This document shows positions 25-48,428 of a DNA stretch of 64,000 bases, piece by piece. The notes beneath the pieces were generated by a model. That model was not told the DNA's origin. It saw only the letters and a program-made list of their open reading frames with translations, and searched no databases. Each line of letters opens with the position of its first letter. The first letter of the stretch is position 1. Where the stretch lies: contig ADNK01000828.1 in assembly GCA_000320545.1 (NCBI GenBank), positions 124,001-188,000 of the forward strand. Reading direction: 5' to 3'. Source of the stretch: Bigelowiella natans CCMP2755 (lineage: Eukaryota > Protista > Cercozoa). A program made the translations under genes and the position numbers.

Positions 25-320
25 GTCTAGCGCTAGCTAATCATGCTAGCTAGCTCTCTAACTTTGGCGGACGCCATTTTTCACACTCTACACATGCAGT
101 CTAGCATCTGGCCTGCTAGGCTTCTGGCTATTTAGCTACACTAGTACATGCCAATCCTTTCTTCATGCTGTTCATGGTTAGTGGCATCGATAGCAACACA
201 TGTCTGATGTGGTTGTGCGATAAGCGCACAATCGCAGCCGATCATGAGACGCATGCGTCAGCTAGCACACGATAGATGCGTTGTTACGCGCGCTGGAAAC
301 TTGAAACAACTAGATAATGA
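25..320. other. CTAG-rich spacer downstream of the FIH-like gene
   Basis: At least 8 CTAG in the first 270 bp, together with GCATGC/CATG/TGCA-type words. Confidence 0.75.
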
Positions 321-2982: not shown

Positions 2983-3574
2983 ATGGAGGCTGTGGCCGTC
3001 GTTGTTGGAGCTGGTGCAGGTGCCACAGTTAGGTCGCAACATTACTCCGATGTAAGCCATCAATAAAGACTGATACTTACTTTTTTTTTCTAATTTTGGT
3101 TGAATAAGACATTTCGCCTCTCAATTTGCGAAGCGGAAGCATTCAGACCTGGGGCCAGTGGCCATCACTGCTGTCAATACTGCTGGTATTTGTCAGATGC
3201 TTCGATAGATTTCATCCAGTAATTATGTGTGGCAACCTTTATGATATAGGTTCGTTTATTCTAGGGGCTGTAGTTGGAACTCCAAATCTGTCAACGAGAT
3301 CCCGGTGCTTGCTTGAACTAAACTACCTGCCATGCTGGCTGACTTACTCTGCCCATTTATGTATAGAGTATGCCTTGGGACGGGATTTTGTGGTGCTCTT
3401 ACTACTTTCAGCACCTACTCTATGGATGTTGTGACTATGATTGAAGCCAAGGAGATCGGAAGGGCGTTGCGATATATCGGCATGAATCACGCTGGCGGTT
3501 TAGGAGGTGCAACCCTAGGTTACCTACTGGCAAAACAATTGGCGCGGAGCACACTGGTGAAAAAGAAATGTTAG
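2983..3574 (+). CDS. crcB: Fluc/CrcB fluoride export channel, single domain, 4 exons
   Basis: MEAVAVVVGAGAGATVR / HFAS...AITAVNTAG / SFILGAVVG...SR / VCLGTGFCGALTTFSTYSMD...; GFCGALTTFST is the Fluc signature. The ATG directly follows a possible acceptor (ctag), so an upstream exon is possible. Confidence 0.9.
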
Positions 3575-3848
3575 TTCGGCTTCGCTTATTAGACAGCTTG
3601 AGTTGTAGTAGTGATACATGGAAACATGTATTAGATTAAATTGAAGGCATTAGAATGTGTAAGGTTATCTTACTAAGAATGAATTACAAGTCCATATTAA
3701 AGATGTGCGATTTTATTTGTTGCTAATGATGCATGCATATATCGTATCATACTTCGACACATGCCAGCCGGTACGTGCTTAAATATTGTAATTGCTACAC
3801 CATCTGCGGATTTGCGACAATGCTGCGAAATCATATTCACTAGTTCAT

Positions 3849-3893
<45 letters not shown>

Positions 3894-4374
3894 TGTATGC
3901 TATCTGGGTATACATAATATCAAACGTGCAGTGCTGGAGCATCACATGGTGCTTGTCTTTATTCTCGCTTCTGCCTTGCTCTACGTATGGTGTAAGCTAC
4001 AAAGCAAAATGCGTAAGCTCACTCGCAGCGCTAAAACTTTTTGGGTTGATTTGGGGCGCGAATGATAATTGTATACATTTACTCTTCAAATTTGGAATTT
4101 AAACCACATCTAATTCATTTAGACCTTGAACGTATATTTGGAGGCAGCGTATTATTAGCAGCAGAAAATTCTCTTTGTGCACATAGAACAAGGATTCTAG
4201 TCACCTATCACGGCAAGTAATGATGCCACCAGATGTCTGACCTCGTCACACGACGTACTTGAATCAAAGGGCACATCAATGCTACTGCAGATTCATGCTT
4301 TCAAGAGCTGGCCATGAGGTATTACTTACAAGTTTATCCCAAATATAGGTGCACATAGTGAAGTCGTTACTTAA

Positions 4375-6462
4375 TCATGCAATTCTCCAAGGAGACTTGA
4401 ACTTTGTCCTACAAAATGAATTTGCCCCTGGAATTTCGAAATCGGAATTGTCTTCCCGAAATCCATCTTTTGGAAGAAATAAACGCCGGTTTTCTAACAT
4501 ACTACGACAATGCAAACATAAGCAAAAGTAAAATGTACGTAAGCTGAGAGACTACATCAATTTGATTATGATACTACCGGTCAATCCGATTTATGATATC
4601 TGGCAGTTCGTCATCGGGGACACTTGCATGTCTTTGCCGTGAAAGCTTCTCAAAGAACTCCATATCCTTCTTGGGGAGAGTATTGTCGACGTTAAATTCT
4701 GGAATCTTCTCCCCAAGTATTTCAGCCCTAACTTTGAGACGTTCTTGCAGAGCCTATGTATGAAATGTGTGTTCCAAATTTGTAGAATATAAAATAATGG
4801 GTTGTTGACAACGAAAGCGTCAATGGATGTTGTTCAGAGAGCCGTTTTGCTGATATATTCGCATTTTATCCCTGGCTCGTAGCAAATTTACATTTTTTTG
4901 CTCTATCCTGTTATCACTTAATGATGCTGTTATTAAAGTAGAGTACACAAAGTAGACTACAAAGAATTACCGATGGATTGAATGTTCCTGCTCTGACTTC
5001 CTCCATCTAAAACGGTAAGGACTTTATACTCATCTTATCCCACACGTTGCAAAATTTACATTTGTACCGTTCGTTTCCATGAAGTCTTCGGAATGGTTTT
5101 CTTCGTTAAAGGCTAAAAAAGGTAAGTTCAGTCTTGTTGGATGATATGCTCTATGTACAGTTGAGTTATACGAAGAAGAAGAAGAAGGAAACCAACCACC
5201 TTGATCTGATGCTCAGCAGGATCGTAGGGCTGTATGTAGACCTCCTTACCTTGTGAGAATAGTCTCTCTTGCTCCACTTCATAATCATGCTGTGCTGAAT
5301 CAATACCGTGTCTTGACTTCTTCCTCATCCCATTTTTCGTCATTTTTCCTGGCAAGAATATAAATGATCTTACGACAAAGCTGCTTGCCGTGAGAGCATT
5401 GATTAGTTATATGGTGGTGTACACCTCCTTTAGGCATGCGGGTAGAGTGTGTTGGAGCATCTTGCACGTCGTCATTCTGTTCAGAATAGATGGCAAGGTC
5501 AAAGCAGCAGGATGATCATATATCTGGAATGAATCTATCGATGGTTGATAGACTGACCTGTGGAAGCATAAGGTCACTTCTTGTTTCGGTATCTAGCTCA
5601 CTTACTTCATTAAAGTGTTGTTGATGTTTGATCTCATCATTCTCTGTAGGATGATGTTCTAAAATGCTTGTTCCTTTGGGGAATGCTGCTTCCCGTTCAG
5701 ACTCGTCGCTTACACTGTCAACTCCTGGACATCAACAAGATCTCATTGTTGGAGACATCCTTATCGTGAAGAAATTAAAACGTGTGTGCGTGCGTGCGTG
5801 CGTGCGTGCTCAAATTGAATCCTATTATGTGTCCAAATACTTATAATGTAGACAAAAACAGACCACCCTTCACCGTGTGACAACAAACATTTACCAGAGT
5901 CATCTTTGCTTGAGCGACTGTGTTCCATATAGTATCCAGTGTCTAAGCGATTCATTTGCTTTGCCCTTTCTTCTCTAAACTGCCTCTCAAGACTCCTATT
6001 TTTCTTTGGTGTCACGTAGTCCTCTTCCGTGACTTCACTAGGTTCTTCTTCATAATAATTGGTAATGTTAGTTACGTTAGTTACAGTATGGGCTCAAATA
6101 TTTCTAGTATTTACCTCCTGGAAATAATGAAATTGGTACTTCTTTCCTCGGATCCTGCCTCCATTCTTCATTCCAAGCTTTCTTCCTTCGATCGCCACCT
6201 TGTTCATGCTTGGAGCACAAAGCATGCAGCATCATCATTATCAAGAACTTGCCACGTATATTTGAGGCGTAACCAACAACAAGCGGCAAATTTTACATTT
6301 TGTGATAGAATGTGCTTCCACCATCACCTTATTGAGTAGATTTCGAGCTGCTCTTGAGAGGCCAAATTCTTTTTCTTGGTCTTTGTCCTTCCTTTTCTGA
6401 CCCCGCTTGCCCGACAACCATGGATGATGGTGCGGATGATCGACAGCAGGCTTCATCACCAT
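4375..6462 (-). CDS. Hypothetical multi-exon charged protein, no recognised domain
   Basis: Chain of GT-AG bounded open segments, e.g. RSLERQFREERAKQMNRLDTGYY, GIDSAQHDYEVEQERLFSQGKEVYIQPYDP, ALQERLKVRAEILGEKIPEFNVD...DELPDIINRIDR, and a final MLENRRLFLPKD...SPWRIA*. The 5' end is uncertain and may extend to about 6757. Confidence 0.6.
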
Positions 6463-7065
6463 TATGAAAATCTGCGCACAGGAGAAGGCTTTCAACGCAA
6501 AGAAAACACGTAGTATAGCCAGGATTCATCGCATACATTATTGTGATGGATTTTATTAATTCGACGTTGGTCGAGTTGAAGTAGAATAAACAAGAGCCTC
6601 TGAAATGGGATGGATGCTGCTTTAAACAGTCCGCACTGTTTTTCGAAGAATATGAAACCCCAAAAAAATCACCAAAACTATTCACCATTCTCCTCTCACA
6701 AACCAATATCAAAGCGAGGCAAGGGTGGAAGGCACGCCATATTTTATCCTCCCGCATCGCATGCGAGCTCCGCTCGACGAGGATCGTCGGTGTTGATCGA
6801 GTTTTTGCAGGCTTTGTCGTTTTTTGTTTGCGACATGGAAAACTTGATGATTTTAGATCAATGATGCTTGGCGTTTATCCACTGCGACAAGACTTTTTAA
6901 TCATAATTCAAATACGACTGAAGCAACAACGGATAGTCCCCCCTCTATCCCTCTCTGGGGTAGGCAGTAGTGCGTAACACATAAAACGAGTGAGCGGTGA
7001 CGGCTGTTGCATTCGAATAATTTTGAAGGGGTTTTAAACTTGTTCTACCTTAGCGTTCAACATTG

Positions 7066-9672
7066 ATGGGAAACCATATTCATCACCATGATAAGCGGAC
7101 TAAAGCTGCTCTGAATGAGCTAGATCGCCATGAATTTATCGCTCCTCTTATGCACAAAGCTACACTTCAATGCCGCTATTTCGCTCAAGGAAGCAATGAA
7201 GATCAAAGAAAGTCCTCTTTTGAGGTTGATATAACGCTGAGCTTTTTCATGTTGAATTCATGCGCAAACGCTTGTCGAAGTTGTTATTGTATGATGTTTG
7301 AATCGAATCTATAATAATATTGAAAGGCATTTGAATTTGTTCGTCGAGAGGCATATCGAAAGTTTCATAGGAAAATTTAAAGGAAAGGCAAAGCTTACGA
7401 CATTAGAATGCCTTCTGCGCCTCAAATCTGAGTCGCTGACAAGGCCCGACGGGTCGAAACATCATTATCATCACAAGGTACATTCTTATTACTTACATAG
7501 CGGCTTTAGTAATTTATTCTGTTTACCCATCTAAGTACACGTGTGGATTTGTCAATTTTGAATTGGTTTCATCGCATATAATTGTTGCTGCTGGCAATTT
7601 TGCCTCATGTTTAAAACTTTGCCAACAATTAAGTTTCAGAATTTTTCTATTCTCACTTCTTACTATGTTCAGAGTTTAACTGTTTCATGGTCTAACGACC
7701 CCTATTTACTGGAGAAGAGCCAAGCTCCTGTTCAAGACTGGAAGATCCTCCTTCTTTCATCCAAAAATTATGAGATCTTTAGAAGCTTGATGGAGAAGAT
7801 GTATCAGCAAGTTTACCAAGAGGTAGTACATTTATAACTAGGTGGCTAGCCAGCTAGATAAACCATAAAAACGATTGATTCAGGTATTTTTCTGTTTCTA
7901 GTTTTCCTAAGTTGTTGCCGTCCATAGCACCTTGACTGCTGCTGATGCTGCTGCCGTGTAAGTTGAAACATCTTGAAAACACCACAAAAAGGTCTTATCA
8001 GAAGCCATTGCGGAGGTGAAAGCAAAAAGCAACCTAATCGTCACCCTCAAAGAGGAAGTAGCAAACTTAAGGGAAAAGTTGAACAATTGTAAAAGAGAGA
8101 AACGGAGATATCGTCATAGAAAAGTTGAACTAGAAGGTCAGTTGCTGCGAGGTGATCACGTAATATCCACACACCTACGACAATTAAGAGCTGCAGGAGA
8201 TCGATCTTCAAATTGTAAAAAGACAGCGACCCTACCGGAGAATATGAAGGTGACTATTCCTCAGATATAGCTGCTCTTCACATGATTATATGAGGAATCT
8301 TGTCTGTATGATTGCAGTTAAATGTTGCATCATTTGAAGATATTGGCAAAGAAGAAGCAAATGGATCGTCTACAAATGATTTGGATACTAACACCATCCA
8401 AATTGCACCTGAAAAGTTCAAGATGAAAGACGAGATTGTTCGTACAAAAGAAGATATTTCCGATGAAAGTACCGTGATGAAGCGAGAGAGGAAGGATGGG
8501 GAAAAAGATCTACCTGCAAAAATGCGTGAATGGTAAATCGACAAACCGAGTCTGTTAAGAGTACTCATAATTAATAGTAGTTCTCTAAATACTTCAGTTT
8601 AAAAAAGGCGAGTGATTCAAGCGAAGAGTCAGAATCTACTTGGAGGAAATCAGATGAAGAAAACCGAGTGCTGAGGGTAGAGTGATATAAGCAGTATTTT
8701 ATTTAGGCATGAGCTCAAAGTCTCATTCCCCCTCGCCCTTTTTGAAATTCAGAAGGAAAATGAGGAAAGTTTTAACGAGCGTTCTGACTCCAGCATCCAG
8801 CTAGATAGGAAGCTAAGTACGAAGAACGATGCCTCATTCTCTGCAACAGCTCCATCAGTATCAGCACAAAAGTCAGCCATAAGGAGACGTAGGCTGCTTC
8901 TTGGATCATTATCAGTTCAAAAGCACGATGATCATGAGGAAGACAAAGAAAACTACCCCCACAACAAGAGAAGGGCAACGATTTCACTCGCAAGAAGTAA
9001 CAATGATGCAAGCAGCTCTGTCAATCGAAGGAGGAAAGCTAAGATGTCTCACAACAATCATTCACCAAAGAACACACGCACAGTTGTTACTATTTCCACC
9101 TCATCAAATGCTGCAACTCCCAAAAGCAGTCTCTCGCGTAGCAAATTAGCGAGAACAGAGCACAATACAAGACAAGGTTTAATATCAAGAGGTTCTGAAG
9201 GAAGGAAAGCAAAAGGACAGAGGCACAAAAATCGTGGTTGGTGGGGATATGCAAGATTTGACTATCAACCCTCTCCTAAGGAGGTGAGTAGTGCAACATA
9301 GAAATGTATTGCTAGTGCTAAAGTTTATAATATAAACAGAAATCAACATCGACCTATGCACCATGACCAGGAAAAGACATTACTTCAAACATTGTCTTCA
9401 CGATTATGCCTTGTATTTAGGTGTCAAAAAAACTCGCTTTGACAAAAGGGGATGTTGTACACGTTTTGCAGGAAACAAATAAGGTTTATATGAAAACCTG
9501 ACTCTTGATTCATCAACGCTATGTGCAGACGTTTCTAACGATTAGTTGTGCTTAGGGATGGTGGTACGGAACAAAAAGTGTAAATGGAACATCGTTTGGA
9601 TCGGAATCGGGGTATTTCCCGGCAAAACACATCCAACAGTGTGACTTGTCGACCTGGAACATTTTCAGATAA
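7066..9672 (+). CDS. SH3-domain protein with coiled coil and possible BART/ARL2BP-like N-terminal domain
   Basis: The last three exons give GYARFDYQPSPKE / VSKKLALTKGDVVHVLQETNK / GWWYGT...GYFPAKHIQ, a clear SH3. Coiled coil at about 7960-8150. N-terminal MGN is a possible myristoylation site. Segments IERHLNLFVERHIESF and LLLSSKNYEIFRSLM only weakly resemble BART. Confidence 0.8.
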
Positions 9673-9865
9673 TGTGATTAGAGACCACCTTCGCTTAATT
9701 TGTTGCCTCATCATCCGATTGGCTTTGCTCTGTTGATGTCATAGGCTGCCATGCATTTAGGTCGTATTTATTGGCTGTTGTTGCTTCATATTTGATGAAG
9801 CTGCACTCGCCAGACATGTGTGTTATTAACTCATGACTGAAGAATTGTTGTGCATTGCATGCAAG

Positions 9866-10365
9866 CGCTAGCGCAGCTATGCGAGCAATAAGTAGAAGTA
9901 AGTGTCTTTTCTACTTATATGCTTTAGTTTGTCTAGTCGTACTCTACTAGTTTTGTTAGCTAGCATTGCACACAATGCTATCTCTAGACCAGGCTACCTG
10001 GACTATGTGACGCACTAGCGCATGTTGGGTCCACAGTGGCAAAATGATTATCGATCAAATTCACACATCCTGCCACGCACATCGCTAGATCGTATAATCG
10101 GCACGCTAGCACCGCTGATCGAATCGAATCGTCCGCACGTTCATTAACTTGTGCAGAGCTCTAGAGCTAGCCTTCTGCAGTCATGTGCGTGCGTCTATGT
10201 TAGCTAGCTAGTATGTAGCCAATGTATGTGCGTCACATGCTAGCATGCCATTCTATTATAGCAACGTGGCCATTCTAACATGCTAGCATGGCAACGTGAC
10301 TATAGTAGCATATGTTTAATTTATTCATTCCATACATCCGTCTTATACTAGCTAGCTAGCTAGCA
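9866..10365. other. CTAG-rich convergent spacer (SH3 gene / AP2 gene)
   Basis: About 18 CTAG in about 500 bp (roughly 2 expected), including (CTAG)n runs. Confidence 0.85.
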
Positions 10366-10560
10366 TATGTGAAATTCACCGTCCTCTCACACAACTCCGT
10401 ATGCCAGCTGGTATGTGCGGCGCATGAAGTGCATACATGCAAGCATTTATACAGGCCCAATGCACACATTATAAATCCATGTTAAAATATGACAGAATTT
10501 GAAAATCGGCAAACTTTAGTGTAATGATAATCTTGACGCACTTGATCCCTAAGATCCTTA

Positions 10561-10851
10561 TTAACCAACATGCCTTTCAACAGAAGCAGATTGAATATCC
10601 TGAAGAATTTTGTCATGCAACTTAGCTAGTGTGCCGAAGTAGGATTTGACATAAACTCCCCCACGAGCAATTTCAACCTAACACAGAATTATGACTACTT
10701 TTAGAATCATATTGGGAATGTGGTACATTGCACTCACGAACCGCCTTATTCTGTTTGAGATATTCCAGACCCTCCCTACATATATGATGTGAGGTGGAGG
10801 AGGAAATTGACCAACACAGTACAAAAACTGTTAAGATGGGATAGACAGACA

Positions 10852-10902
<51 letters not shown>

Positions 10903-11238
10903 ACATGCTATATGGTTTGAAATAAGCACCACCTATAATTAGAGGATCCGATTATGCGCGACAGCCTGTGCTTGCCTGACGATTCGAAACAACAACATTG
11001 AAAATGTTAGACTTGAGTGTCCTCCTAAATCTAAACCATCATTAGTAGTGGTACATGGATATGGCACCACCCATGTTTATTCACACCACAAACAAACAGA
11101 TAAAGAAAGATAACTTTGATGATATGACAGCCTAATCAGTGAGTCAGTGAGTTAGAAGTAGTAGCAGCAGATGTACCAAGTAGAATGCCACATCCTTTCC
11201 CTTGCACCTTGATGGAGACAGCCACCTTATTAAGCAGA

Positions 11239-11273
<35 letters not shown>

Positions 11274-12180
11274 TTATATTAATTAAATAATAAACAGCAG
11301 CAGCAAAATGATAATGATGCCAGACGCATTCTTCGGGTGCTGTATAATAAAATTGAAGGTCAACCAATTTTTTGGCTATCATCAGCTTCTTCAGTTTACG
11401 ATCCTTAGGCGAGAAAGTTGGTTCATTCTCGGGGCCACAGATTGCATCCTACAAACCACCAAAACATAAGACGCTTGTTTCTACTTTCTTTTCGAAAAGA
11501 AAATATTTGAATTTTTGAAGGCTGCAGTAGCATGTAGCCTACCAGATCATAATCGGTTGCAGGGAAATTTGTGAATGCAGATCTTCCTCGTGCCTAATGA
11601 ATAATGCTAATGTTACTACCCGCCAGTATTAATATATCGTTGCCAGAATCAGATAGAGGTCTATTTTCATCAAACTAGGGAATATGTACACCGTCGTAGT
11701 AGCTACTATTCATCAAGAGCATAGCAATCACTGTTCTTCTTCTTCCGTATTGACAACAAGTAAGTAACCACCTTCAGATTAGCTCTATCATAAGCCCTTG
11801 CCTAACGACAATTGCAAGCATTTAAGTACACCTTGGAACAACTCAATAATACTGGAAATATGATGATAATGATGATGATGATGATGATGATGATATGTCA
11901 TATTAATATAATGATGACTAACCGCGTCCTCTTTTGTCAAGAACCGGCCCAAATGAATCTCCTAAAAGATGATACGTTGAACAACATAATTATTACCGTT
12001 CTCATTATTATTATTCTTTATCTTGTTCTTATTATTAGTCTTATCGTATTAACCATTTCCAATCTCATTCGTTTACAAAAGTGAGAGATGGCAGCACTGG
12101 TTGCTGGTAATCATTGATAGTGTATGTAGCACTGGCAACAACAACAACAGGTGTTCTTATAGCAGTCGTCGTCTCTATCA

Positions 12181-12215
<35 letters not shown>

Positions 12216-12605
12216 GTAGTAGTAGTACCCTGTTAAGGTAAGAGAGAGTTGCTTCGAAATGCATCGGTCCTCTCTTTGGTATCTTCCGTGGCATTCTAAC
12301 TCCTTTGTACCCGCTCCTATTGGCTGGTGATGATAATAGTAATCATAGCAAGGAAAGAGCAGGAGGAGGAGGAGGAGGAGGAGGAGGGAGAGTGAGAGGC
12401 GAACGATAATTATCCACATAGCTATAATTTGTGAGATCACAAGGTCAGATACGCTTTCACACTCCTCGAAGTATCACTGGCCTCCTCCTCCTCCTCCTAC
12501 TCTCCCCTCTCCTCCACCTTGATCTATGTGATCTATTTGTTGTTGTTGCTTACCGATGTAGAGATTTCGCCCATCATTGGTCCTAAACAGCAACCCCCTA
12601 ATAAT

Positions 12606-12645
<40 letters not shown>

Positions 12646-12764
12646 GTGCTCTGTCATATCATTTATGCCTACATTCTGTTGTCTGAGCTACAAAAAGAGC
12701 GAACGACGTTATTTTCGCTATTAGTAGTGATATTCTTAATGCGCTGATTCTTGCTGCAAATAGC

Positions 12765-12799
<35 letters not shown>

Positions 12800-14936
12800 C
12801 AAATGTTTCCTTTTCGGTCGCTCGATGTATTTTGAGGGGTAAGAGTGATGATGATGATGATGATGATGATGATGGGGATGATGATATTGCACCCTTTTCG
12901 TGTGTCCTGTGTGCCTTTTCCTTGCCGCCATATTTGTTGCTGCAGCGTTGTATCATTCGAGTATTATTATTACTATTATTCCGCACATATACATTCCCAT
13001 TTGAAGGTGATGATTCATGATTGAGAGTAGAGGAAATGCTCTTGGAGAAAGTAATGTGGATTACTGCTCACTGTTCAATTACCGGTGAGATCTTTGCAGT
13101 AGTAGAGTTATTGTTGTCGCGGTTAAAAGGAAGCTGGTGTTCTTCTTCTTTTTCTTCTTCTTGTTTGTGCTGTTGTTGTTGCTGTGCACGTATCTTAGCA
13201 GCTAAGTAATACCTAAACATAACATCAAGCAAGCGCTTCAAATATACAATTTTGGGATACAATAGTCATCATGCAAGCTCTTCATGTGTACATTTTTTTG
13301 TTACAAGAATAGTGCCCTGAGGTACATTCGGTTCGTATTTAGAATCAATATGAGTCATGATCGTATCATGCTGAGGTACATTCGGTTCGTATTTTGAATC
13401 AATATAAGTCATAATCGTATCATGCTGTATGTTGATTTTTATCGATGACATTTTAATAGTCGTTTCATTACCTATCATTAGAATGACTCCAAGCCCCATA
13501 AATTTTTTGATATTTCTGTTTTAAGTCCTGAATGCTGCAGCTGAGGAGGTTATCTCTCCTAGATTCAGATACCTTTTAATAATGGAGGACAAAGCGATCA
13601 TTGATTCGCAAGGCTGACGAAATAGCTGCTGCGACGAATCATAACATGATGACAACGACTGCTTTTGCTGTGCAATTACCGATTGGCCAAATATACTACA
13701 GCTGTTCTGTTGCGTTCCAACCCCTCCTCCAGTAAATCTAGTGTTGTAAGCCTTGTTACCTTGAAGAACATCACAATAAGGGTGATAGTTTGATTAGAAT
13801 ACTTGCAAATATTTAGTACACACAACGGGCCATGGATATATCTTGTGTTGTTTGACTTACCTGCTGCCTCAATGAGAGGGGAAAACTTTTGCCATCCATA
13901 GCCCGAGGTCCACATTGAATCCAAACTGAACAAAAGGCCAGTTTAGTTGTGCTAGTAGTTGTAGCACTACTACTAATAGCTGTAGTAGAAGAAGAAGAAG
14001 AAGAAGAAGAAGAAGAAGAAGAAGAGGTAGTGTAGTGACAGAATTTTGGTGTCTATTCAAAATAAATAGTAATGGCCACAAAGTAGAAACAGCATTCGGT
14101 AGTAGTCGTTGACAAGCAACCTTGTCGTATTTAGTCTCAACATGCGAGAGATTCTTCGAAGCCATGTTCGATGTTGTGTCGTCGCCTCACTTTCCAGCGA
14201 GTGAGAGGAATTAATATTCAAGCTACCAATTGGGCGTGTACTGTTGTTGCTATTTTCGTTGCTGGAATTACGCATAAGTGACAGATAATGCTTGACTACA
14301 TATCGACGATTTCTCTCCAGTCGCACAAGTTTCTCAGCATCAGAAGCTGATATTTTGTTGCCCTACAGAGTAAAGTAGAAGCAGCAATACAGGATATCAT
14401 TTGTGTGGATAATGAACGTGTCAATGCAAGCGAAGCGCGTGATGTGAAATCTTAAACTTACAGCTTCCATAGGATGCCACTTGGTTAGGTCAAAATACAG
14501 GTTCCTAACACCCCCGAAGCAGCTGCTTGTTACAGGAGAAGAGCTTCTGAGAAAAGTGTGCGACGCACGTCCATCCTGACCGGATCCATACCTCCACTTG
14601 GCTTTGTACTCGCCGAAGCGGCATAAATCTGGACCAAGAAGTAGACTGTTTTTTATTATGTTGAAAAATACGATTTAGTTTGAAGAGTGAGGAGTATTTT
14701 GAGGAACAATCGGCACCTGATATCCAACAGGAGGACAACAAGGAGCGAAAGTGGCAACCCAAACCTCCTGGCAACTCCTCCCTTCCTTCTTTGTGGCGAG
14801 AGAGTCGTTTCTTTGAGTTGGAGGTCCTTCACGTGGTCGCCATAGGCGGGACAGAGTGCGGAGTAGTCCAATATGATCAGCTATGTGTTTTGAAGGCGAC
14901 GAATGAACGCTCGTCCATGCGTCGTCTACATACCAT
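10561..14936 (-). CDS. AP2/ERF DNA-binding-domain protein, many small exons
   Basis: Four small exons at about 11540-12313 splice to SGYKGVRMPRKIPKRGPMHFEATLSYLNR / EIHLGRFLTKEDA / ARAYDRANLK / ARGRSAFTNFPATDY, matching the AP2 consensus YRGVR...LG.F...E.AARAYD.A..K.RG..A.TNFP. Outer boundaries are inferred, and the span could hold more than one gene. Confidence 0.75.
13317..13424. repeat. 54-bp tandem duplication (2 copies), in frame (18 aa) on the minus strand
   Basis: Copies at 13317-13370 and 13371-13424 differ at 3 positions; they translate as QHDTIMT[Y/H]IDSKYEPNVP twice. Confidence 0.95.
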
Positions 14937-15438
14937 TATGATGATCTCTTCTTCTCCTTATCTGAGCCCTTTGTTCGTCTGGTTCACGTTCCTCTTCTCC
15001 TTCTCCTCCCCCCCTCTGCCCTAGTATGCCACTGTGTGCGAGTGGTAAGTTTGTTAGTCCGTAAATTGTATAAATTAGTCTTTTTTACATGGGTATACTT
15101 CGTAGTTTATGTTATCTTATCAGCTAGATCATGATCATTTGTTGCGACCATATCTACATTGTAGGAAACTACTTCTTAGGATAAAATATCAACATATTTT
15201 TAACCACCTTGTTGTGTTCTGCTTCTGGATGATAAATATACGAGATCTATGCTACCATATTTTGAGATCTGTAGCGCAACACAAACAACAACAGCTAGCC
15301 AAACGCTGCAAGCAGGAGCGATCAACACACACCCGCTATTGCTATTGTAGCACACGCTCACACTTGTGCACAGTATTTGGAGCGTAAAGATTTGGTAAAC
15401 GTGCTCACTTGAGCCTAAAATATCCAACTTCACGCAAG

Positions 15439-16813
15439 ATGAAACGAAAGCACGAGGAAGAGGAAGGAGAGAGCCCGAGCGAGGAGGATCCGGAGGATAG
15501 CGAAGAGAGCGATTCAAGAAAGAAGAAGAAGAAAAAAGACCATAAGAAGAAGGTAACCATGTCTAAACAATGAATGATGAGTGCACCGTATGACTGAACT
15601 AAAATACGTGAGAGTCTGAGGACCTTCATTCACAACGATGTGCGTGTTGTCATCAGGATAAGAAAAAAAAGAAAAAGAAGGATAAGAAGAAGAAGAAGGC
15701 GAGGAAAGACGATGACGATGGCGATAAAGAAATCAAAAGATTGGTTGAGCTTGGAAAAAAGATGCGCGAGAAGTTCCCGGATTGGAAGCCGATTTCTAAA
15801 AAAGATTACTTCAACAAGAGCACTGAATTCAGAGTGTGGTTGCAGGTTTGACTTATTGCAAAAATTTAGTGTTATTGACAGAACCTTTGGACTAATTCCA
15901 ATTGTGGCAACAGGCAAGGAAAAAATTCCTTGATGACCTTCCACGCGATAAGGCGAATAAGTTGTTTGAGAAGTTCACGAGCAAATGGAACTCGGGATCT
16001 CTTCCAGACAATCTGTATGGGGGCATCAATCGGACACAATTAGAATCATCGGCTCTAACCAAACATAAATGGTCCTTTGTCAAGGTAGTTCTGTGTAAAA
16101 TTAGGATTAAATATTAAGATAAGTCACTTCTGTCTTCTTACTCTGGTCTGTTTTAGAAATTAGGAGAGAAGGAGAAGTTTGAATTAGCCAGGCTTCGCGA
16201 CGATGTCGATACAGACAATCAAAGGCAATCTTTTCAAGCCAATGCTTTGACCCGCACATGTGATATTCCGACTGGTGGTCGTGGGAAAACTGGACAAATG
16301 CGGAAGCAAGAGACTCCATATGAGCGTGAAATGAGGCGCAAGGCTGAAAAGAAAGAAAGGCGTGATTTTCAGAAACACAAAGACATGGTGAAAGTGTAAT
16401 GTCTACGGCAACTTGCACCCAATCATTTGCTTTTGTTCCCAGGTAATGGAAGAATTAGTTCCAAAAGCAACTGGACGAGAGGCTTTGATTGAAAAGCGGA
16501 AGCAAAAAGGCGCCTATGCACGTGCTGGTGCACAGAGGGATGACAGCGTGGCTGCAGTACCTGATAGTCAGCTGATGGGGTACCCACAATCCCTAGAGAT
16601 AGATACTATATCTATTTATTTAACTTACTTTTTCTCCAAAATTGTAGGGGAAGTAGTGACTTCCACGCAGCTGTTGCACGTAGAAATGCATATAGAGCCA
16701 AAAAACAGCAAGAAAAATCCCTGCGGCTGGAACAAGCCAAGCTGAATGAAAAAGCGCGCATGCAGAATTTCCTTCAGTCGATGGGACTCCAAGACAAATA
16801 TAAACTTAAGTAG
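15439..16813 (+). CDS. SCI1 (style cell-cycle inhibitor 1)-like nuclear protein
   Basis: Lys/Asp-rich N-terminus, then ISKKDYFNKSTEFRVWLQ / ARKKFLDDLPRDKANKLFEKFTSKWNSGSLPDNLYGGI...TKHKWSF, and C-terminal MEELVPKATGREALIEKRK. Family recognised from memory. Confidence 0.75.
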
Positions 16814-17029
16814 TACTCAAGTAATTTTACTGAGTTGTCATCATTGCTGAAATTGGGATGCATAGTCAATATGATGTGATATGGCGATTTATGTTTTGTG
16901 TCGTATTATATCATAAACATTGTATCTATCTGATATCGGCATACATCATAGTCGATGCAGCATTTGCTGTAGCTACATATATGTGTAACTAAATGTACAC
17001 ACAGTATACGTGTCTGTTGTTGTACGTCG

Positions 17030-17850
17030 TATGCTAGTATGCATCGCACTTTGCGCATGCACAACCAATGTGGCACACAAAATATATGAAAATATGTGCA
17101 TCACCATTATTTAAATTGCATCAACTAGAAAATTCGGCGGCTGGTGACGACAGCTGTACTGTGATAATTTTTAGTTAACCAGAGACTATGTCCCTGCTAT
17201 TATGAGACGATGTCATGTACGTTGTTAATAACTACGTTATTTCACATGCACGCTCAAGCTAGATAGCTATGTCTCTCTAGCTCTGACTATACTAGTACAT
17301 GTACAGCGTAGTTCTATTTTTTCACATTGAGCGCCATACTAGCAACAATACGTGCATGAGCAGAACATGCTAGCATGATGAACCTGACAATCGTACAGTT
17401 TGCAACGCAACGCAATGAACTAGTGAAGTTCGCATCGGCTAGCCCTGTAGAGTCATCCAGCTGATGATCGACACTAGCTAGACTACAACAGGACAGACGA
17501 GAGACGTGATGATTTTGTCAGATGCATCATTTCAATTGGAAAAATTCAAACATTTCATCACGCATGCATCTTTATCTGTCTCATCATTTTATAATTTCAC
17601 ATTGGGTTTGCATGCCCACCTCTACTACGATGTACCAGTCTGCACCAGACCTGCTACACACGTACTGGCGGCAAACAAGTAGTAGATCTAGAGCTGCTAG
17701 CTTATGCGATGTGTCTAGATCACACATACGCAATGATAGCAGCCAGCGAGAAAGGGTGTGCATTGTTAGACTGCTAGCTAGCTAGGTAGATATATACACG
17801 ACGATGTACGGAATATCTCATAGATATGCTTCTGCTACCTGGCTAGCTGG
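17030..17850. other. CTAG-rich convergent spacer (SCI1-like / atpG)
   Basis: About 18 CTAG in about 820 bp. Confidence 0.85.
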
Positions 17851-18075
17851 TGTTTGTTACACAAATCCTATGCGCGTGATAGCATAGCGCATGCAGCAAA
17901 AACTACTCACATTTAACCCACAGCGTCGATACAACCGTGCATACTAACTGTAAGAATTATCTAACGTGTTATGCCACTGGATTTAAATTATTCATCATAA
18001 AGACACAGCTTCATGATTATCCCTAACCCTCAGACACGAAATGTCGGACGTGGCGCGGAAGTCACACTCTTGAAT

Positions 18076-19033
18076 TTAAGCAGCGACTTTGAAAAGCTTG
18101 TCGTCCATTGCCTTAATGTCTTTCATTTCAGAGTCATCCAACACCTTAGCCATAATTTCCCAGCAGAAGCCTTCAACTTCCTGTGCCATGCTCTCAAGTA
18201 CAACAGTGCGGTCCTTCTCAATTCCACTAAGGGCAGCTTCAATCTCCTTGTTAACCTTATCCTTGCTAGCAGCCATAGCAGCTTCGCATTCTGCGTTCAG
18301 AGCGGCAAGCTTTTCGTTTCTCTCACTGTTGATAGTTGCGCGCATATTGTTGATAGATTTTTCAGCGAAGGAAATAATCTGATCGCACTCCTCTAAGTTG
18401 CCACTCGCAGACTCGAGGTTAGCCTTCAAGATACCGTTACGCTGATCAATAACTTTGCTGAGAGGTCCAAACCAGAGCTTATCAAGGAAAAAACTCAAGA
18501 GTACGATCTCGGTTGCCATGTACGGCAAGGTAAGATCGAAATCGAAGAGCAATCCACCCGCAGCGAGAGCAGGGAAAGTGTTTGCAAGGTTGCAAACACC
18601 CACAGTAGCAGCAGTGGCCAGTGGAGCCCCAACGCGAAGACGGATTTTGTTAGGCGCAAGGTCAACTAAATATAAAATTTGTTAGTACAATTTCATCACA
18701 GAAATTCTCAAGAAATTCCACAGTACCTGGACGAGGGCGGACAGCAATTTGCTTTTCGTTGGAGTGTGCAAAGGCAGAAACGGATCGAGATGAAGGTGCA
18801 ATTCTCATATTTACAGGAGCAGCCATCCTTGATCGCGAGACGATACCGGTGCTAACATTACCTATCGAATTTTTAAAATTGTTCATCACCCAACCCCATG
18901 AATTTATTTACACTTAACAGTAATCGACTTTCTTTTCAAATCTACCTTGAGTGTTTACACTGAAGAGGACAAGGCCCACAAGGACACAAGCCAGTACTAC
19001 GTTAAGAACGGCAGAGGCGTGGACGGCCTTCAT
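18076..19033 (-). CDS. atpG: Plastid ATP synthase CF0 subunit b' (II) precursor, 3 exons
   Basis: Mature region GGLLFDFDLTLPYMATEIVLLSFFLDKLWFGPLSKVIDQRNGILK. Exon 1 (19033-18946) encodes the signal peptide MKAVHASAVLNVVLACVLVGLVLF. Exon 2 is a Ser/Arg-rich transit peptide. Exon 3 starts with a thylakoid signal ending PALA. Confidence 0.95.
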
Positions 19034-19743
19034 TGCTACTAGGGTTTTAAAAGAGTTCAGACGTAAGTAAATCATATTTCGAACGAGAAATATTTAGCTT
19101 CAATATGTCCGTCAGCAAGTACGTATGTCGCAAAGGAAAATTATATTCTATTTTGTAATTCTTATATCTCAATTATAAATTCTCTGGTTCTGAACTTGCT
19201 GCGTCGTTCAGTTGAAAAGGGGGTCGAATAATAATAGCAACGACAATGAAATATCATTACCGCAAGGAGAATTACCATTATGATATTGAATGAATGTTGA
19301 TAATCGCAGGGATTGACGGAGACATAGTGGGTGCCCGCGCTTGGTACGTGCTAAATTCTCCTCTGGCTCTTAGGTGTACCGACCGCTTCTAACCGTGGAT
19401 TCCCGATAATAACGAGTGCAAATATTCGCTCAAATCCTCCGGTAGAATCGGGGATACATCAATATGGTCATAAATCCATAAGATTTTTACTCTTGCTTGC
19501 CAAATCTAAGCACCAGAAAATGAAATTAGCTATCTTGGAGGAGTTACGTGGTGACCACGTAGAACACAAAGCTCATTGCCGAGAAAGAAAGACCCGCTCC
19601 ATCTGGATTCCGAGTATTTTCGGTAGCCAACTCATACTGATCGAAATAGGATATGAAGATCGATGTTTACGTATTCATTATTGCTGTTCACATACTTCTC
19701 AGGGTTGTTGTAAGTGTTGTTGCAGGCGCATCTCATAAAAAGA

Positions 19744-20707
19744 ATGGACGTCAATCTTGAACCTTCGTTCTTCTCTCGCAACACTGGCTTTGATGACGAG
19801 GAAGATGAGAAGAATGCAAAAGATTCAGAGTGCCCAAAACCAACTGTTATTTTCACTGTACGATACTCGCGAATTCTTTTTCATTTTATGAATGTAATCT
19901 GACAATATGTGTACTACGCAGTGGTGTCCATCAGTCAAAGCAAATCTGAAGAACGGATTGTTCAATACCGAGCTTCTTGTGATCGGCTGTAATGATATGT
20001 GCTCGTTAGCTCTTCGACGTGCTGTAGAATGTGGGGAAAATAAGATGGACTTGCTAGGAAGTTTAGTGATGGAGGAAACTCCTATTAGGACTATGAGCGC
20101 AGCGAATCCCACTATTGCTCAGCAAACCTGTATGTTTTACTACCTACCAAGTTCCAAACTTACAATAGCTATGGTGGGGGGAGGTTTACCTGCATCAAGT
20201 GCGTTCAACGTTACGGAGACCATATTTAAGCATTTCGATTGTAAAAATGTTGTCCTCTTGGACACGACGATGACTGCAGCAGCAGAAGCTGATGAAGAGA
20301 AACTGTCATCCCTGGCATGCATAGAGACTAGTGAAGCGTCCTCAAGCAAAGGGCTGGAGATTATAGATAGTAAATATTTATCACCACCATCCATGATTCG
20401 TGGCCTCGGAGCTGCTCTCATGATCCATTGTGAGATAAAGAGTATTCCAGCAAGGCTATACACTGCTTTTGAGGATATGCATAGGACCCTAGACACATGT
20501 CTTGTCTTTGATAGATTACTATCGAGCTCATCCATTGCACTAATTCCCAAAAACGTATTGTCGATGGAACTCTCAAATAAAAGATTAGAAATCAAAGATG
20601 TTGCTGAAAAAGCAGGCCTTGACTGGGAAAGTCCTCTACAGGCACAGCAGCTAGTATATGCGGAAGGGGGAACTAATGTACCACCTCCCGATGGGATTTA
20701 CATTTGA
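19744..20707 (+). CDS. PSMG1: Proteasome assembly chaperone 1 (PAC1), 2 exons
   Basis: Acidic N-terminus (SRNTGFDDEEDE), motif YLSPPSMIRGLGAALMIHCEIKSIPARLY, and a C-terminal HbYX motif (-GIYI). Phase-0 intron at about 19858-19921. Confidence 0.8.
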
Positions 20708-20859
20708 AAACTTTTAACAAAAATTGTTATTAAAAGAAGGTTTGGTGCGTCACAAATGTACGTACATGCATACTTGCATGCTGCTACAACAATGTGAGCG
20801 CGGCCATGTTAGGCCGCTGCTCGATCAATAATGTCATCTCCCAATATGCATATAGGGCT

Positions 20860-21290
20860 CTGGGATCTAGTCATGCGAAGTGGTTCGCTGGAATGTATTA
20901 CAATTGCATCAACTAAAATGCTACTTGCATTAGGGCTTGAATAAGAGCACTCGGAACTACTCTGTGCATACATACATATACACTAGATAGCTACATTAGG
21001 ATGTTAAACATTTCATTACATCCGTCTCACACTAGATGTACTACTAGTAAACTATATCTGACGATGGTAGTGGCCATTATTATAATTAGCATGTTGCGTT
21101 CATGCCTATGCTTCTAGTTATACGCTTCCCACGCGCGATGCGTACGCTACATATACCAAGCACACATATCTAGATATATTTATATGTATGTCAACATCGT
21201 GTGTTCTGTGTATCTATGTATGCATCTGTTGGTAGCTAGATGATAATGGGTACATCGTGATCCAGTATTCGTATCGTCTAGCTAAGAATG
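20860..21290. other. CTAG-rich convergent spacer (PSMG1 / C2CD5)
   Basis: About 8 CTAG in about 430 bp, plus many alternating purine-pyrimidine words. Confidence 0.7.
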
Positions 21291-21552
21291 ACACGCGATT
21301 GGATAATATTCTAAATACACATTGTGTAGATGTAAAGGTCTGTATGCACCACAATTGTGGGCATGTAATGAGCCAGTGATTCACGTCACATGCACATTCA
21401 GATACAAGCATCGTAAGGGCTGTGACGTTTTCTGTCAGGCGTGGTCTGGGGACTATCATTACTATTGCTGGCATTTTGTTATTCCGATGATCAACGGAAT
21501 CATGTGTATCGTGCATTTACATGTAGCAGCTTGAATCGAGAAAGTTTGGGAG

Positions 21553-22483
21553 TCAGCAAAAGCCAGGGTGTGCCCGAGGAGGAGCAAGCTGTACAGCATC
21601 CCCGCTCAGGCTCATTATACTATAGCTCTGCCGTGTGCTTTCTTGGTCAACCTTAGGTGGGATTTTATTATAATCATCATTTCTCAAAGGTTTGACAGAG
21701 CGTAGTATGACATCAATGCATGTAATGAAATCGCTACTTAAATACTATTAACAATGACATTTATGATTAGATATTACCTGATATTCAAGAAGTGTATAAG
21801 AAAGTAGCGCATTGCCGCCCTTAGCAAACACTTGAGCTCTCGCTGTAAATAAACCACGTAGGCACAACTCGTCGAGAACCATTTAGTACAGATTCATCAA
21901 AATAATTGTTTAATTCAGCGCCAATTGAAATTGCATGGGGGATCAACAGTTAGTCTATCATTCATTGGCCATCATCCACTCTGTACATGCAACAACCACA
22001 ACTACTTCTGGTACTGCTACTACTTAACATACCTATTGAGTTAATTTGAGCAAGGAGTTCGTGCGTAAACTTGGCAAGCGTACTGATTATTGGTTGGGGG
22101 TTGTGCGGACGATGAACGACTTTGATGGCGATGAAAGATTTATTTTGAAGAATAGGAAATATAAGACTAATTTGCATGGTAGAGACAACTGCCAGGCATG
22201 TATAATAAATGAGCACGTTGATTCGGTGCTAGGACACACATTCGTCGTTACTACCCTCTTTTCTCCTCAAACGATTCACGTATTATATGAACAGATATTC
22301 TTCCAAGATGTTTCGATATTGACCGACACGGAAGCCTAAACAGAAATGACCAGGATTTGAAAAAAAATCGAGTATTAATTATTTTTTAACTATTACTCTA
22401 CAATTCATATTGCTAGCAGCCTGTTTCGAGATAGTCGTTTTTTTCATCATTCCAACCCTTCCTCTTCCTCTACACTATAAATA

Positions 22484-22545
<62 letters not shown>

Positions 22546-23748: not shown

Positions 23749-23783
<35 letters not shown>

Positions 23784-23840
23784 CATATCTGTAAAATTCA
23801 TTTTTACATCATATTGTGGAGTTAGTTCATCGCAAAAATG

Positions 23841-23896
<56 letters not shown>

Positions 23897-24064
23897 GACG
23901 AATGAATATGCTACACGTATTGTTATCATCCAGCACCTGTGACTGAATGTTGCAAGCTATCCCACGCGATTTGAACAATAAAGACGCATATCTGAGCAAT
24001 TTGAATAGCAATGACGACGGTATTGATGATAGTGATGATGGTAATGATGATGATGATGATGGTA

Positions 24065-24097
<33 letters not shown>

Positions 24098-24406: not shown

Positions 24407-24448
<42 letters not shown>

Positions 24449-34060: not shown

Positions 34061-34842
34061 ATCACTGAAACATCTGCACTTTTTGTTCCATTTTGCCAAG
34101 AAGCCTTTGATGCTCCTGACATGCTGCATGCCAATGTCATCATTTTTCATTGCTCGTCGCACGTTTCTTTGTTGAGTGTTTGTTTGTTTGTTCGTGCAGA
34201 GCAGCAGGGATGTGACATCAAGTGTTCAATGCTCAAATCACAATTGGTGCCTGCGCATGCGGCGACCATGTCGATGCAAAGTTCAGTTCAATCAACTCAC
34301 TTGAAATCGTCACAAAATGGCAGTGCACAACTGCAGGGCTCTCGTTCATTGTCTTTTCACACACTTTGCTCCTCAGTTTTGTTCCTGGGTTCTGCACGCA
34401 CCAGCGCACGCTGCAACGTGCCGTCCTGGCGTGGACTGGCTGCACGTCAGCATGGCCTGATTGCCCGATTTCCAAAGTTGTTCTGCGAAAACGTGCAACG
34501 TCGTGGTCACCTCACGTTCGTTGACTTCCGTGCGACCCTCGTCACGAAGTCCAGAAGTGCTGGAAAACGTGACACATGCAAGCTGCTTTGTGTGATCGTG
34601 AGAGAGTGGCACCAGCAGCAGTGAAGCTCTGATGCCACACGTTCGACAACGACCGCCGCAGCTAGGCAGGCCAGCTAGCCAGTCTAGCAGTGCGAGCACA
34701 GCGAAGTGAACGACAGAAAAGTGCGCAATGAACGATGGAATGCGGCTGTGCGCACGCCGCTGGAACCAGCTGCGTTCGTGCAATGACAACTAGCTAGCTA
34801 GGTGCTGCACACTGGCACAATGCGCAACGTGAATGGCAATGT
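34061..34842. other. TpA-depleted intergenic island 1
   Basis: No TA dinucleotide between the TA at 34060-61 and the TA at 34663-64. The 6 TAs from there to 34842 are all inside CTAG. Confidence 0.95.
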
Positions 34843-35184
34843 GTATGAGTGTGACGCATGCCTCTTTGAATGACAAAGGTTCGTCACTGCTAGTGCGGTA
34901 CCTAACACAGGCATGGGTTAATGTGCAAGCCTAGCAATCGATGAAATAGATAGCACATCTGACATCATGTCTGCTACTCGATTGTGCTTTGTTTGAATGC
35001 GATCATATGATTTAGCTCGACAAAACTAATCAATAGTTATGGCATGTTTTCGTTGTGATGAAGTAATGAGCGTAAGATGAGGCTGAAAGATAGTGTGCTT
35101 TATCATGCTAATCAAATCTACTACTAGATTAGATCCCTGGGGGGTTGCGCATGATGGATAGCAGTTGACTTATCATCTGCATCT

Positions 35185-38241: not shown

Positions 38242-38859
38242 GAGAGAAGATGAAGGAACCTTTAACATAAATAATGCTCGAGAGTCATTGCCGCAGACAA
38301 ACGATGCCCTAACAGAGCAGCCAACAACTGCCTGATACCCAATTCATACATCGCAGCAAAGGAGGACACCATTTCGGCTTCGATTGGCACGTACCCGAAA
38401 CTCCGGTTATTTATGTCGCTTGACTAGTAAACTTGGAGAAGTAGTCTTCCAGCTACACAGATCCCGGCGGCGGCGAAATGGGGAGGGCGGGTTGAGGGAG
38501 AGAGCACCGGAATTACAAGAATAGAGTTGTCCTTTTTAAGACCTAAATATTAAGGATAAATGCTGTCGCTCTCGCTAAAAATGCAACACGTAAAGGTGAA
38601 TTTTCCTCAGATCAGCTTGCACGCTCAACATAAAAAGAAGTCAAAGGAGAAAATTCTATGAGATATTTTGGACCTTGTCTTAACCAATCTCCCCCTATTT
38701 TGCCTGTGTTTTTCATCAAGCGACAAGGAAGGAAGGGCAACGATGTGACGTGCGAGCACTCCTGGCCAAAATCGGAGGACAATGAAACTGGGAATGGAGG
38801 AGTGGCCAAATTGCCATTCTTGATTCCTTTTTGTTTCACTAGTTAGTTCTCACTAGCTG

Positions 38860-40045
38860 CCAAAGTCAGTTCGAGGCACAGTTTTCAGTCCTCACTGAAG
38901 CCAGTTCGAGGCACTGCACTTCGCACACTGGAAGTGTCTTGTCACACTGCTTTGGAAGTGCAGTTTTTCATCATTGTTCTCATTGTTCTCGTGGATGACG
39001 AGTTGGCATGTCTGACCTTTCGAATCAACCTCAGAACCACTTCATGCATTCATTCATTCATGGAAGCAACCCTCAATTTTCACAATGGTCTCCCTCCAAT
39101 GGAAACACTTCTTTCTTTTTCCTTGTTGATTGAGGAGAAACGAAGTGGATGAGTTGGCACATCGTCCGCGGCCAATGACCCTTCGTTTCGCAGTTGCACC
39201 GTTGGAATGACTTCGTTCATTCATTCATCTAGTCATTGCGGCTGACGTCGGCCAGGTGGTGTTCCAGTGGTGCCTGGTCTACTGGCGACACCATGGTCAG
39301 TTCAGAGTTGGGTGCTTCAATTCTCTGGCTGGTGCGCACGTGTCTCGCGTGAGAAACTGGCACTCACAAGGATGCAAAAAAAAGTGAAATACTCGCGATG
39401 ATGTTTGTCACAGTGAGTGTCACTGCACGTTGGGCTTGTTTCCTGAGTGGTGCTCACAAGTGCAGTCCAGCAGTCCAGCAGTGCGTGACTGCACACGCGT
39501 GCGTTCCACGCGTGCCAGCCTGCAGCCTGCTGCGCTGGCCTGTTGGCCTGTCAGCCTGTGTCATCTGTCAGCTTCCCTGGCTAGCTAGCTGCTCAACACG
39601 TGCATCATTCTGCAGAAGTCATGCCACAGATCATTGGCATTCCAATTGTGCGCTGTCATGGAGCATGCGCCATGACATGCAGCTGTGCGGGACGCCTCAC
39701 TCAGGCAGTTGGCATGGAAATGCGTCTTTTTCGTGGTGCTAGCTTGGCTAGTTGGTCTAGAGGGTGGCGTGGTGGCATTTTTTTTCTTTTTTCACCACCA
39801 CGTGGTAGCAGGAAAGTGCATGCCGCATGACGCAACGTGTGCACACTTGCTTGCGAGTTGAAATGACATAGTCGCAGTTTTGGAGTTGTGCAAATGTGCA
39901 CGCACATGTGCAAGTGCATCTGTGCACGTTCTTGCTTTGTCTCTGTTGAATGCTCCTAACTTCAAAGTGAACAAGACATTGTCCACATGCATGCTGACGA
40001 AACAGACAAAGAACATGCGCACAGTTTTTCACATCTTTGATCAAA
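38860..40045. other. TpA-depleted intergenic island 2
   Basis: About 11 TA in about 1190 bp, 6 of them in CTAG; 38860-39229 has none. Confidence 0.93.
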
Positions 40046-47699: not shown

Positions 47700-48428
47700 A
47701 TATTCGAATTACTATGTAGAGATGCAACTTTATCATAGAAATTTATCCTTTTTTCCGTCCCAATAGATATTGTTCAGTTGCAGAAGCTTATTCAAATTGT
47801 GGTGATTGAATGAACTTCGCATAATTCAAATGACACTGAATATTTTTGGTACTTCGCAACTGAAGATGTCAATCTAAATTCGACGAAGTTAAAACCGGTA
47901 CGTTGTATTCAAAAAGTGCAATGTAAAACTAAACTGGTGAAAGCAAATAAACATATTGAGATTGTTACAAGTGCATTCATCAGCGCATACATGCGTATAC
48001 AAGCGAACACTGCAGCTGCATGCATGGTGCAGCACCGGGTGTCATGCAAAATGATGCATTTTGTCCGCATCGGCAATGATGTCTGCATGTAGACGGTGTC
48101 AGATGCATCATCGCCAAAATGATCTACAACTGGATGTTTACAACGTCGTTACAAGCTACTCTTTATCTATAGTAGTGACGGCCATGCGTGCTGCAAAGGC
48201 ATGTAGAGTCATTTGTATGTAGCAATAATTAACGGCTCAACGTGCAAGGATCAAAGCAAGGAGGTCCCATCTAGCTAGCCATGCCGGGGTGCTAACAATT
48301 AATGAAGCTTTTGATCAGTGTCTAGAGTGTGCCTTATTGTTATAATTATGTCTTCTACATATCTAGATATCTGGTGAGTTCAAATAATCGTTACAGCTGC
48401 GAGATCATTAGGCAGTAGACTTGTACTC

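Follow-up and report, generated by a model that had tools for sequence, protein, structure and literature searches.

Why does the four-base word CTAG crowd into the space beyond the ends of genes? The question is raised by positions 9866-10365 of the window, by which we mean the whole 64-kb stretch of DNA, on which all statistics were computed. This segment holds 18 CTAG in 14 runs, 10 as GCTAGC, against a window mean of 1.5 per 500 bp. An earlier note on this DNA had put the number at about 18 in 500 bp. Exactly 18 were counted, and 0/1000 dinucleotide shuffles reached that figure (mean 4.3, maximum 11). The further clusters it listed hold up as well. Those at 25-320 (9 CTAG), 17030-17850 (18), 20860-21290 (8), 34660-34935 (8) and 39580-39760 (5) were each reached by 0/1000 shuffles, and the weakest, 48270-48370 (4 CTAG), by 2/1000. 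An unbiased scan of the window returned nine clusters, where chance would give 2.6 (95th percentile 5). Seven of the nine are in 3' flanks, one lies across a stop codon and one in an intron. Those beyond the earlier list are at 7838-7898 (four CTAG, in an RNA-confirmed intron) and 46509-46674 (four, around a stop codon).

The window is B. natans-type nuclear DNA. RNA was mapped on 3900-10850 and 14050-22460, which is 15.4 kb of the 64 kb, with 4 RNA runs per stretch, one of which contributed nothing for 3900-10850. Gene ends beyond both stretches are inferred from reading frames alone. RNA contigs give presence and not exact ends, and the sole read-level poly(A) site is the atpG end. The genes and gaps that matter for position are these:

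27..313, no strand: cluster in the 3' flank of a gene whose stop is inferred near 430
6930..9730, + strand: upstream gene transcript, from RNA; stop ends at 9501, 3' end near 9730 as estimated from contig depth
9866..10365, no strand: focal CTAG cluster, within the untranscribed convergent gap ~9731-10454
10455..15098, - strand: downstream convergent gene; stop 10561-10563, 3' end ~10455, RNA mapped at both ends
16900..17945, no strand: convergent gap with 18 CTAG; ends at the atpG poly(A) site 17949/17951
18076-19050, - strand: atpG, nuclear-encoded plastid ATP synthase B' subunit (Pfam PF00430)
20790..21290, no strand: convergent gap after PAC1, with 8 CTAG

The closest hit to atpG covers 98% of the query at 100% identity; members of the cluster carry the names Bigelowiella natans and B. 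longifila. The ORF of the upstream gene ends at 9301, inside an RNA-confirmed intron; its true stop ends at 9501. RNA puts both the focal cluster and that at 17030-17850 in RNA-free convergent gaps, which bears out the claim that the clusters lie past gene 3' ends. Depth is zero in every run for the bin 9932-10163, and 17141-17421 is free of RNA. The cluster at 20860-21290 is partly RNA-covered from both sides, as 3' UTR or read-through. CTAG stands at 19.0/kb in RNA-mapped convergent gaps (42 in 2215 bp), 2.1/kb in transcribed RNA-mapped DNA (25 in 12155 bp), 0.9/kb in 3' UTR (1 in 1068 bp) and 2.0/kb in RNA-mapped divergent gaps (2 in 992 bp). The first CTAG comes ~70-150 bp beyond 5/6 mapped 3' ends and 22 bp beyond the sixth. 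The note was also right that divergent promoter gaps lack clusters, with 8 CTAG in 3415 bp over all six (three of them delimited from sequence only), and that the convergent gap 3574-4375 has few, with 2 CTAG, which is chance level. That gap is mostly 3' UTR, and RNA extends to 4043 and weakly to 3952.

Two side observations concern the genes themselves. Over 1-56000 divergent and convergent orientations alternate; the only exceptions are two head-to-tail gaps, each with a TA-free island (gene models partly inferred). A partial gene duplicate, 45375-46012 against 47080-47689, is 94% identical and presumably RNase T2-like (HGIWP motif).

One can imagine a scenario where CTAG or GCTAGC is a terminator or insulator motif, bound or modified at transcription ends and therefore selected and shielded there. 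The sharp confinement beyond 3' ends speaks for it. ApiAP2 proteins are known to bind GCTAGC and TAGCTA (passages of PMC6631176), and GCTAGCTAGC is present in maize accessible chromatin (a passage of PMC12492591). Other observations do not go with it. The convergent genes at 3574-4375 have no cluster between their ends, and the methylation motifs in the cited part of 10.1101/2025.11.19.688996 on viruses of B. natans do not include CTAG. CTAG shows no helical or 4-bp phasing. Folding goes beyond shuffles (z -3 to -4) in only 2/8 cluster segments, so there is no consistent hairpin, and longer shared words lacking CTAG do not clearly exceed what 4-mer shuffles give. An ApiAP2-type cis-element was rejected on location: it would be expected in promoters, and the RNA-mapped divergent gaps have 2 CTAG in 992 bp. 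PMC8360572 has no passage on CTAG or AGCT.

What binding or modification does not predict at all is a variable 4-bp direct repeat around CTAG. We defined seven 3'-flank zones from gene ends and clusters before direct repeats were noticed. In these zones 19/61 CTAG runs have the exact form X-CTAG-X, where X is a variable 4-bp word, while flank permutation gives a mean of 0.8 and a maximum of 5 in 2000. With one mismatch or less the count is 26/61 against 4.3 expected. The repeat length is specific: 3 bp gives 0 and 5 bp gives 1, which is near chance, and the signal ends sharply at the borders of X. Outside the zones the count is 2/119, one in the short 3' gap at 3840 and the other just upstream of an inferred start codon at 45029. 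We call the exact units scars. The focal gap has 5/14 runs exact and 3 more with one mismatch. The scars and near-scars are:

9864..9899: short-form candidates, AGCG-CT-AGCG (9864-9873) and AAGT-AG-AAGT (9890-9899)
9929-9940 and 10102-10113: one-mismatch scars in the focal gap
10011..10022, no strand: CGCA-CTAG-CGCA, exact, non-palindromic 4-bp repeat
10081..10092, no strand: ATCG-CTAG-ATCG, exact
10157..10170, no strand: AGCT-CTAG-AGCT, exact, overlapped by CTAG-AG-CTAG
10236..10247, no strand: CATG-CTAG-CATG, exact
10279..10290, no strand: CATG-CTAG-CATG, exact
10344..10367, no strand: (CTAG)4 run flanked by TATA and CATA, which differ at one position
3836..3847, no strand: TTCA-CTAG-TTCA, exact, in the short convergent gap without a cluster
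141: exact scar in the 3'-flank cluster 27..313
17034, 17277, 17370, 17420 and 17843: exact scars in the convergent gap 16900..17945
21170: exact scar in the gap after PAC1
48267..48370: CCAT-(CTAG)2-CCAT and ATAT-CTAG-ATAT, both exact, in a weak cluster

The flank listing adds TGAA-CTAG-TGAA as a further example. Some smaller observations belong beside these. The (CTAG)4 run (10348-10366) is matched by RNA contigs of other loci, one with CATG before it, which suggests similar runs elsewhere in the genome. The word TACATCCGTCT stands just before CTAG in two convergent gaps (10326-10351 and ~21008-21035), though such shared words as a class are not clearly above shuffle expectation. Outside simple repeats there are two 5-bp versions, at 6104 and 48322; the one at 6104 is in an intron and reads TATTT-CTAG-TATTT. 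In the intron cluster 7838-7898 one of the four CTAG has a 4-bp repeat with one mismatch. The microsatellite-packed genes of 21500-33300 and 48500-64000 ((TAC)n, (CAT)n, (GAG)n, (TA)n), which alternate with compact repeat-free genes, have no exact scars in their packed stretches.

The direct repeats also bear on neutral turnover of simple sequence, that is (GCTA)n slippage, hairpin-templated symmetrisation or CCAG/CTGG deamination. Flank palindromy is indeed above within-gap permutation (24 vs 16, of 40), and purine-pyrimidine alternation is high in the gaps (0.61 vs 0.51). However, non-palindromic flanks repeat directly in 13/52 cases and inverted in 0/52. We reject hairpin-driven symmetry for the flank palindromy, which is largely a by-product of palindromic targets. 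The CCAG/CTGG precursors are not depleted (22 vs 15). Tandem runs of CTAG do occur, but full explanation by slippage, the refuting result that the earlier note had named beforehand, fails: the whole window has only 9 such runs, and 40/55 CTAG in five gaps are isolated. Slippage probably contributes only the even-numbered runs. Neutral turnover is thus very unlikely, and the direct-repeat result has already largely refuted it.

The spacer is as specific as the repeat length. CTAG is the commonest spacer between 4-bp repeats (18/53). Of other palindromes in the zones, CATG, AGCT, GATC and GTAC each give 0 and TGCA gives 1. Against 4-mer-preserving shuffles the spacer CTAG occurs 18 times vs 0.35, CTG/CAG 6 vs 1.1 and CCAG/CTGG 6 vs 0.28, and the short form CT/AG has a modest excess, 9 vs 4.1. 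The other spacers in excess (TCT/AGA, AGAT, TCTA) are in part the same scars read in a shifted register, and their numbers are too low to support a claim. The duplicated words start with G or end with C in only 1/42 orientations, and this is why CCTAG is rare. Much of the GCTAGC and TCTAGA excess is likewise due to palindromic targets such as CATG and ATAT. The RNA-mapped convergent gaps (2215 bp) contain 11 exact single-CTAG scars; 12155 bp of transcribed DNA and 992 bp of divergent gaps contain none. Peeling the scars gives 32 events against 2.2 expected, with two nested layers in each TA-free island; elsewhere it gives 4 events across 11957 bp of transcribed DNA and a single one across 3425 bp of divergent gaps. 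It must be noted that 49/73 CTAG in 5.7 kb are left after peeling, so exact scars cover only part of the excess. Two or more mismatches are found in 35/61 runs, and among these there is a weak excess of palindromic flanks (16 vs 10.9, p 0.04).

A constant few bases between two copies of a target is what cut-and-paste excision leaves after end-joining repair (PMC3878927, in its passages on excision). X-CTAG-X has this anatomy of target-site duplication and excision footprint. We therefore argue that the clusters are dense fields of X-CTAG-X which are likely the excision footprints of a putative cut-and-paste DNA transposon beyond gene 3' ends. We infer the step from scar to transposon, and with it an element that has a 4-bp target duplication and ends starting 5'-CT. 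The element would insert just past a 3' end, duplicate the 4-bp target X and then excise. A few terminal bases would stay on each flank, and end-joining would give mostly X-CT+AG-X, or X-CTG/CAG-X and X-CT/AG-X where ends were trimmed. Overhangs of CTA or CTAG that anneal to themselves would lead to the same main product. Every round of insertion and excision would then lengthen the site by a net 8 bp. The pile-up in post-poly(A) gaps may come from element targeting, or from full-length insertions being tolerated only there. Local hopping, which is frequent among cut-and-paste elements (same source, in part), would help. Scars that are older, have mutated or are nested probably make up much of the remaining CTAG excess. 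From the number of one-mismatch relative to exact scars we estimate ~4.5% divergence, a rough figure biased to young scars; with the published rate of 3.46 x 10^-10 this corresponds to some 6 x 10^7 generations, again rough.

The 8-bp insertions could also have a non-mobile origin. A nuclease or topoisomerase could make 4-bp staggered breaks in termination zones, and repair could add a fixed CT/CTAG linker. The X-CTAG-X counts speak for this too, and the 64-kb window yielded no complete element that has CT...AG ends and is bordered by a 4-bp duplication. Nor was a scar-free allele seen, in RNA that does not reach into the gaps or among 30 metagenome loci with atpG relatives, the best of which has 47% identity, none being a usable chlorarachniophyte locus. 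Topoisomerase II does give 4-bp duplications by fill-in and end-joining, but the published ones have no constant spacer (10.1101/2020.05.03.075358 and PMC8795545, in the passages cited). Empty 4-bp duplications with non-CTAG units are no commoner in the five 3' gaps (17) than in the six divergent gaps (16); the shuffle baseline, for all units, is about 11 in both gap sets. We know of no repair pathway that adds a fixed palindrome. This origin is unlikely, and we keep to excision footprints of a transposon as the preferred reading.

The two head-to-tail gaps provide a separate line of reasoning through their TA-free islands:

34061..34843: TA-free island 1, with intact scars at 34662, 34675 and 34684 and edited ones at 34385, 34401, 34551 and 34812
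38845..39805: TA-free island 2, with intact scars at 39229 and 39748 and edited ones at 39467 and 39475

Hypermutation from TpA to TpG/CpA has been measured in Bigelowiella natans, with cut-offs of TA o/e <=0.43 and CA+TG o/e >=1.52 (bioRxiv 10.64898/2026.01.13.699255, in part). Islands 1 and 2 pass both, with TA o/e of 0.28 and 0.21 and CA+TG o/e of 1.69 and 1.74, and by their sequence they appear to match the published process. Repeats that differ only by TG/CA/TA number 3 per island against ~0.2 expected. The main-text passages of that paper cited here make no mention of CTAG or its flanking context. As for a viral or transposon origin of the islands, their ORFs have no Pfam match above cut-off, one ORF searched has no protein relative, and the pattern of island 1 has 0 matches in metagenomes, though the ends of island 1 resemble terminal repeats.

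The earlier note had claimed that CTAG survives in these islands. This stands insofar as 13/15 TA remaining in the island cores are within CTAG, which a shielded motif would also predict. CTAG is not immune, however. Edited scars of the form X-CCAG/CTGG-X are found in 6/28 cases in the islands against 0/23 in other gaps (Fisher p 0.027). The six edited island scars, which lie beside five intact ones, mean that CTAG can be edited. TpA editing would have rewritten the older island scars, and the intact CTAGs would have arrived later. Insertion probably continued after editing, by about two to one, although slower editing of A before G may account for the intact CTAGs instead. An enzyme rule that CTA is refractory gives no fit (71 CTG[ACT] vs a baseline of 35-39), and TAG may still be the refractory word (52 [AGT]TGG vs a baseline of 24-36). 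CA or TG inside X is uninformative for dating the island scars, being equally common outside the islands (11/16). With variable duplicated flanks and editable cores added to the missing phasing, hairpin and longer motif, the claim that CTAG is bound or modified, and therefore selected or shielded, is distinctly unlikely. A terminator, bound-motif or base-J role is unsupported, although scars may secondarily serve such a use.

Island 1 is bracketed by a TA-led 12-nt inverted pair (34046-34057 and 34881-34892, 11/12 matching), and a pair like it occurs at 1/400 random boundary pairs. It may be a miniature element that targets TA and is separate from whatever made the scars. A 23-nt inverted pair (38708-38730 and 39119-39141, 83%) marks the left border of island 2, where an obvious target duplication is lacking. 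Helitrons end in CTAG (PMC4778049, in part), and the clusters might be relics of their 3' ends or of one dispersed repeat family; the pair at island 1 could also be taken to favour this. We find this barely credible. CTAG is followed by T in only 26/132 orientations, and the upstream hairpin is no stronger. Helitrons insert between A and T without duplication. The clusters share no homology beyond short CTAG words in self-BLAST and pairwise alignments.

A bolder scenario, which we offer tentatively and would ourselves bet against, is that the transposon is still active. Such a hit-and-run element, of a type not yet described, with a variable 4-bp target and CT/CTAG ends, would be steered to termination zones and add 8 bp per visit to every 3' spacer. 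Its stay would draw TpA editing, so the TA-free islands would be its former residences, and intact versus edited scars would date the editing episodes. If the footprints are confirmed, the ends and target length of an apparently very active transposon can be predicted from a 12-base pattern, and this transposon shapes the intergenic DNA of a model rhizarian alga. An apparent regulatory motif becomes a readable mutation record. Intact scars beside edited ones would be an internal clock for TpA hypermutation, with which to test whether editing follows transposon visits. At the very least, GCTAGC-type words near the gene ends of other genomes should be treated with caution since they may be scars, and a one-line test suffices.

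How do the clusters compare with known systems? Rfam gives 0 matches in the window. Among the results listed by a literature search not aimed at footprints, there is no description of CTAG clusters in chlorarachniophytes. Nucleomorph-type telomere repeat addition was rejected, with no CTA or CTAGG among the enriched spacers. Tandem CATGCTAGCATG in viral contigs was set aside too; there are 15 matches, and the one inspected has the look of an intergenic site in a phage. ApiAP2 words, the maize chromatin motif and base J resemble the clusters in position or wording only. Base J in kinetoplastids likewise sits at transcription ends, where it is a modified base ending polycistronic arrays (PMC7055916). 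Here, in contrast, each gene is a single unit with a poly(A) end of its own, and what marks the site is an insertion pattern. The ApiAP2 words GCTAGC (TgAP2XI-5) and TAGCTA (AP2-O) are the same hexamers that are enriched in five gaps, 21 and 16 times. They are regulatory motifs, and that of AP2-O is in promoters (PMC6631176, in part), whereas the promoter gaps here lack the words and the flanks are duplicated target words. Hypermutation in B. natans accounts for the islands, not for the CTAG clusters, and the islands here are ~1 kb, gene-free and between host genes. Topoisomerase II duplications are likewise 4 bp from a staggered break, with AGCT the commonest unit in human data. They are enriched in transcribed DNA, which scars avoid (PMC8795545 and 10.1101/2020.05.03.075358, in part). 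We reject that signature, empty 2-4-bp duplications in transcribed DNA, because the scars have a spacer and are absent from transcribed DNA.

Among mobile elements, the Tc1/mariner footprint of Sleeping Beauty, TA-C(A/T)G-TA, likewise has a short constant spacer, trimmed variants and local clustering (PMC3878927, in part). Here the target is a variable 4-mer and not TA, the core is CTAG and the scars are concentrated past 3' ends. We reject Tc1/mariner since the 21 duplicated words are varied 4-mers and not TA. piggyBac and hAT were taken as defined in PMC3878927. piggyBac, with its TTAA target and footprint-free excision, is rejected because none of the 21 targets is TTAA and a spacer is present. 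hAT, with an 8-bp duplication and a random footprint, is rejected because the zones give 0 at 8 bp and the spacer is constant. None of the superfamilies in the descriptions compared combines a variable 4-bp target with ends in CT. Judged by those descriptions, the combination of variable 4-bp target, CTAG core and dense 3' fields appears to fit none of Tc1/mariner, piggyBac, hAT and Helitron. Transposon excision footprints as such are already known, and it is the combination of features that differs here from the described ones.
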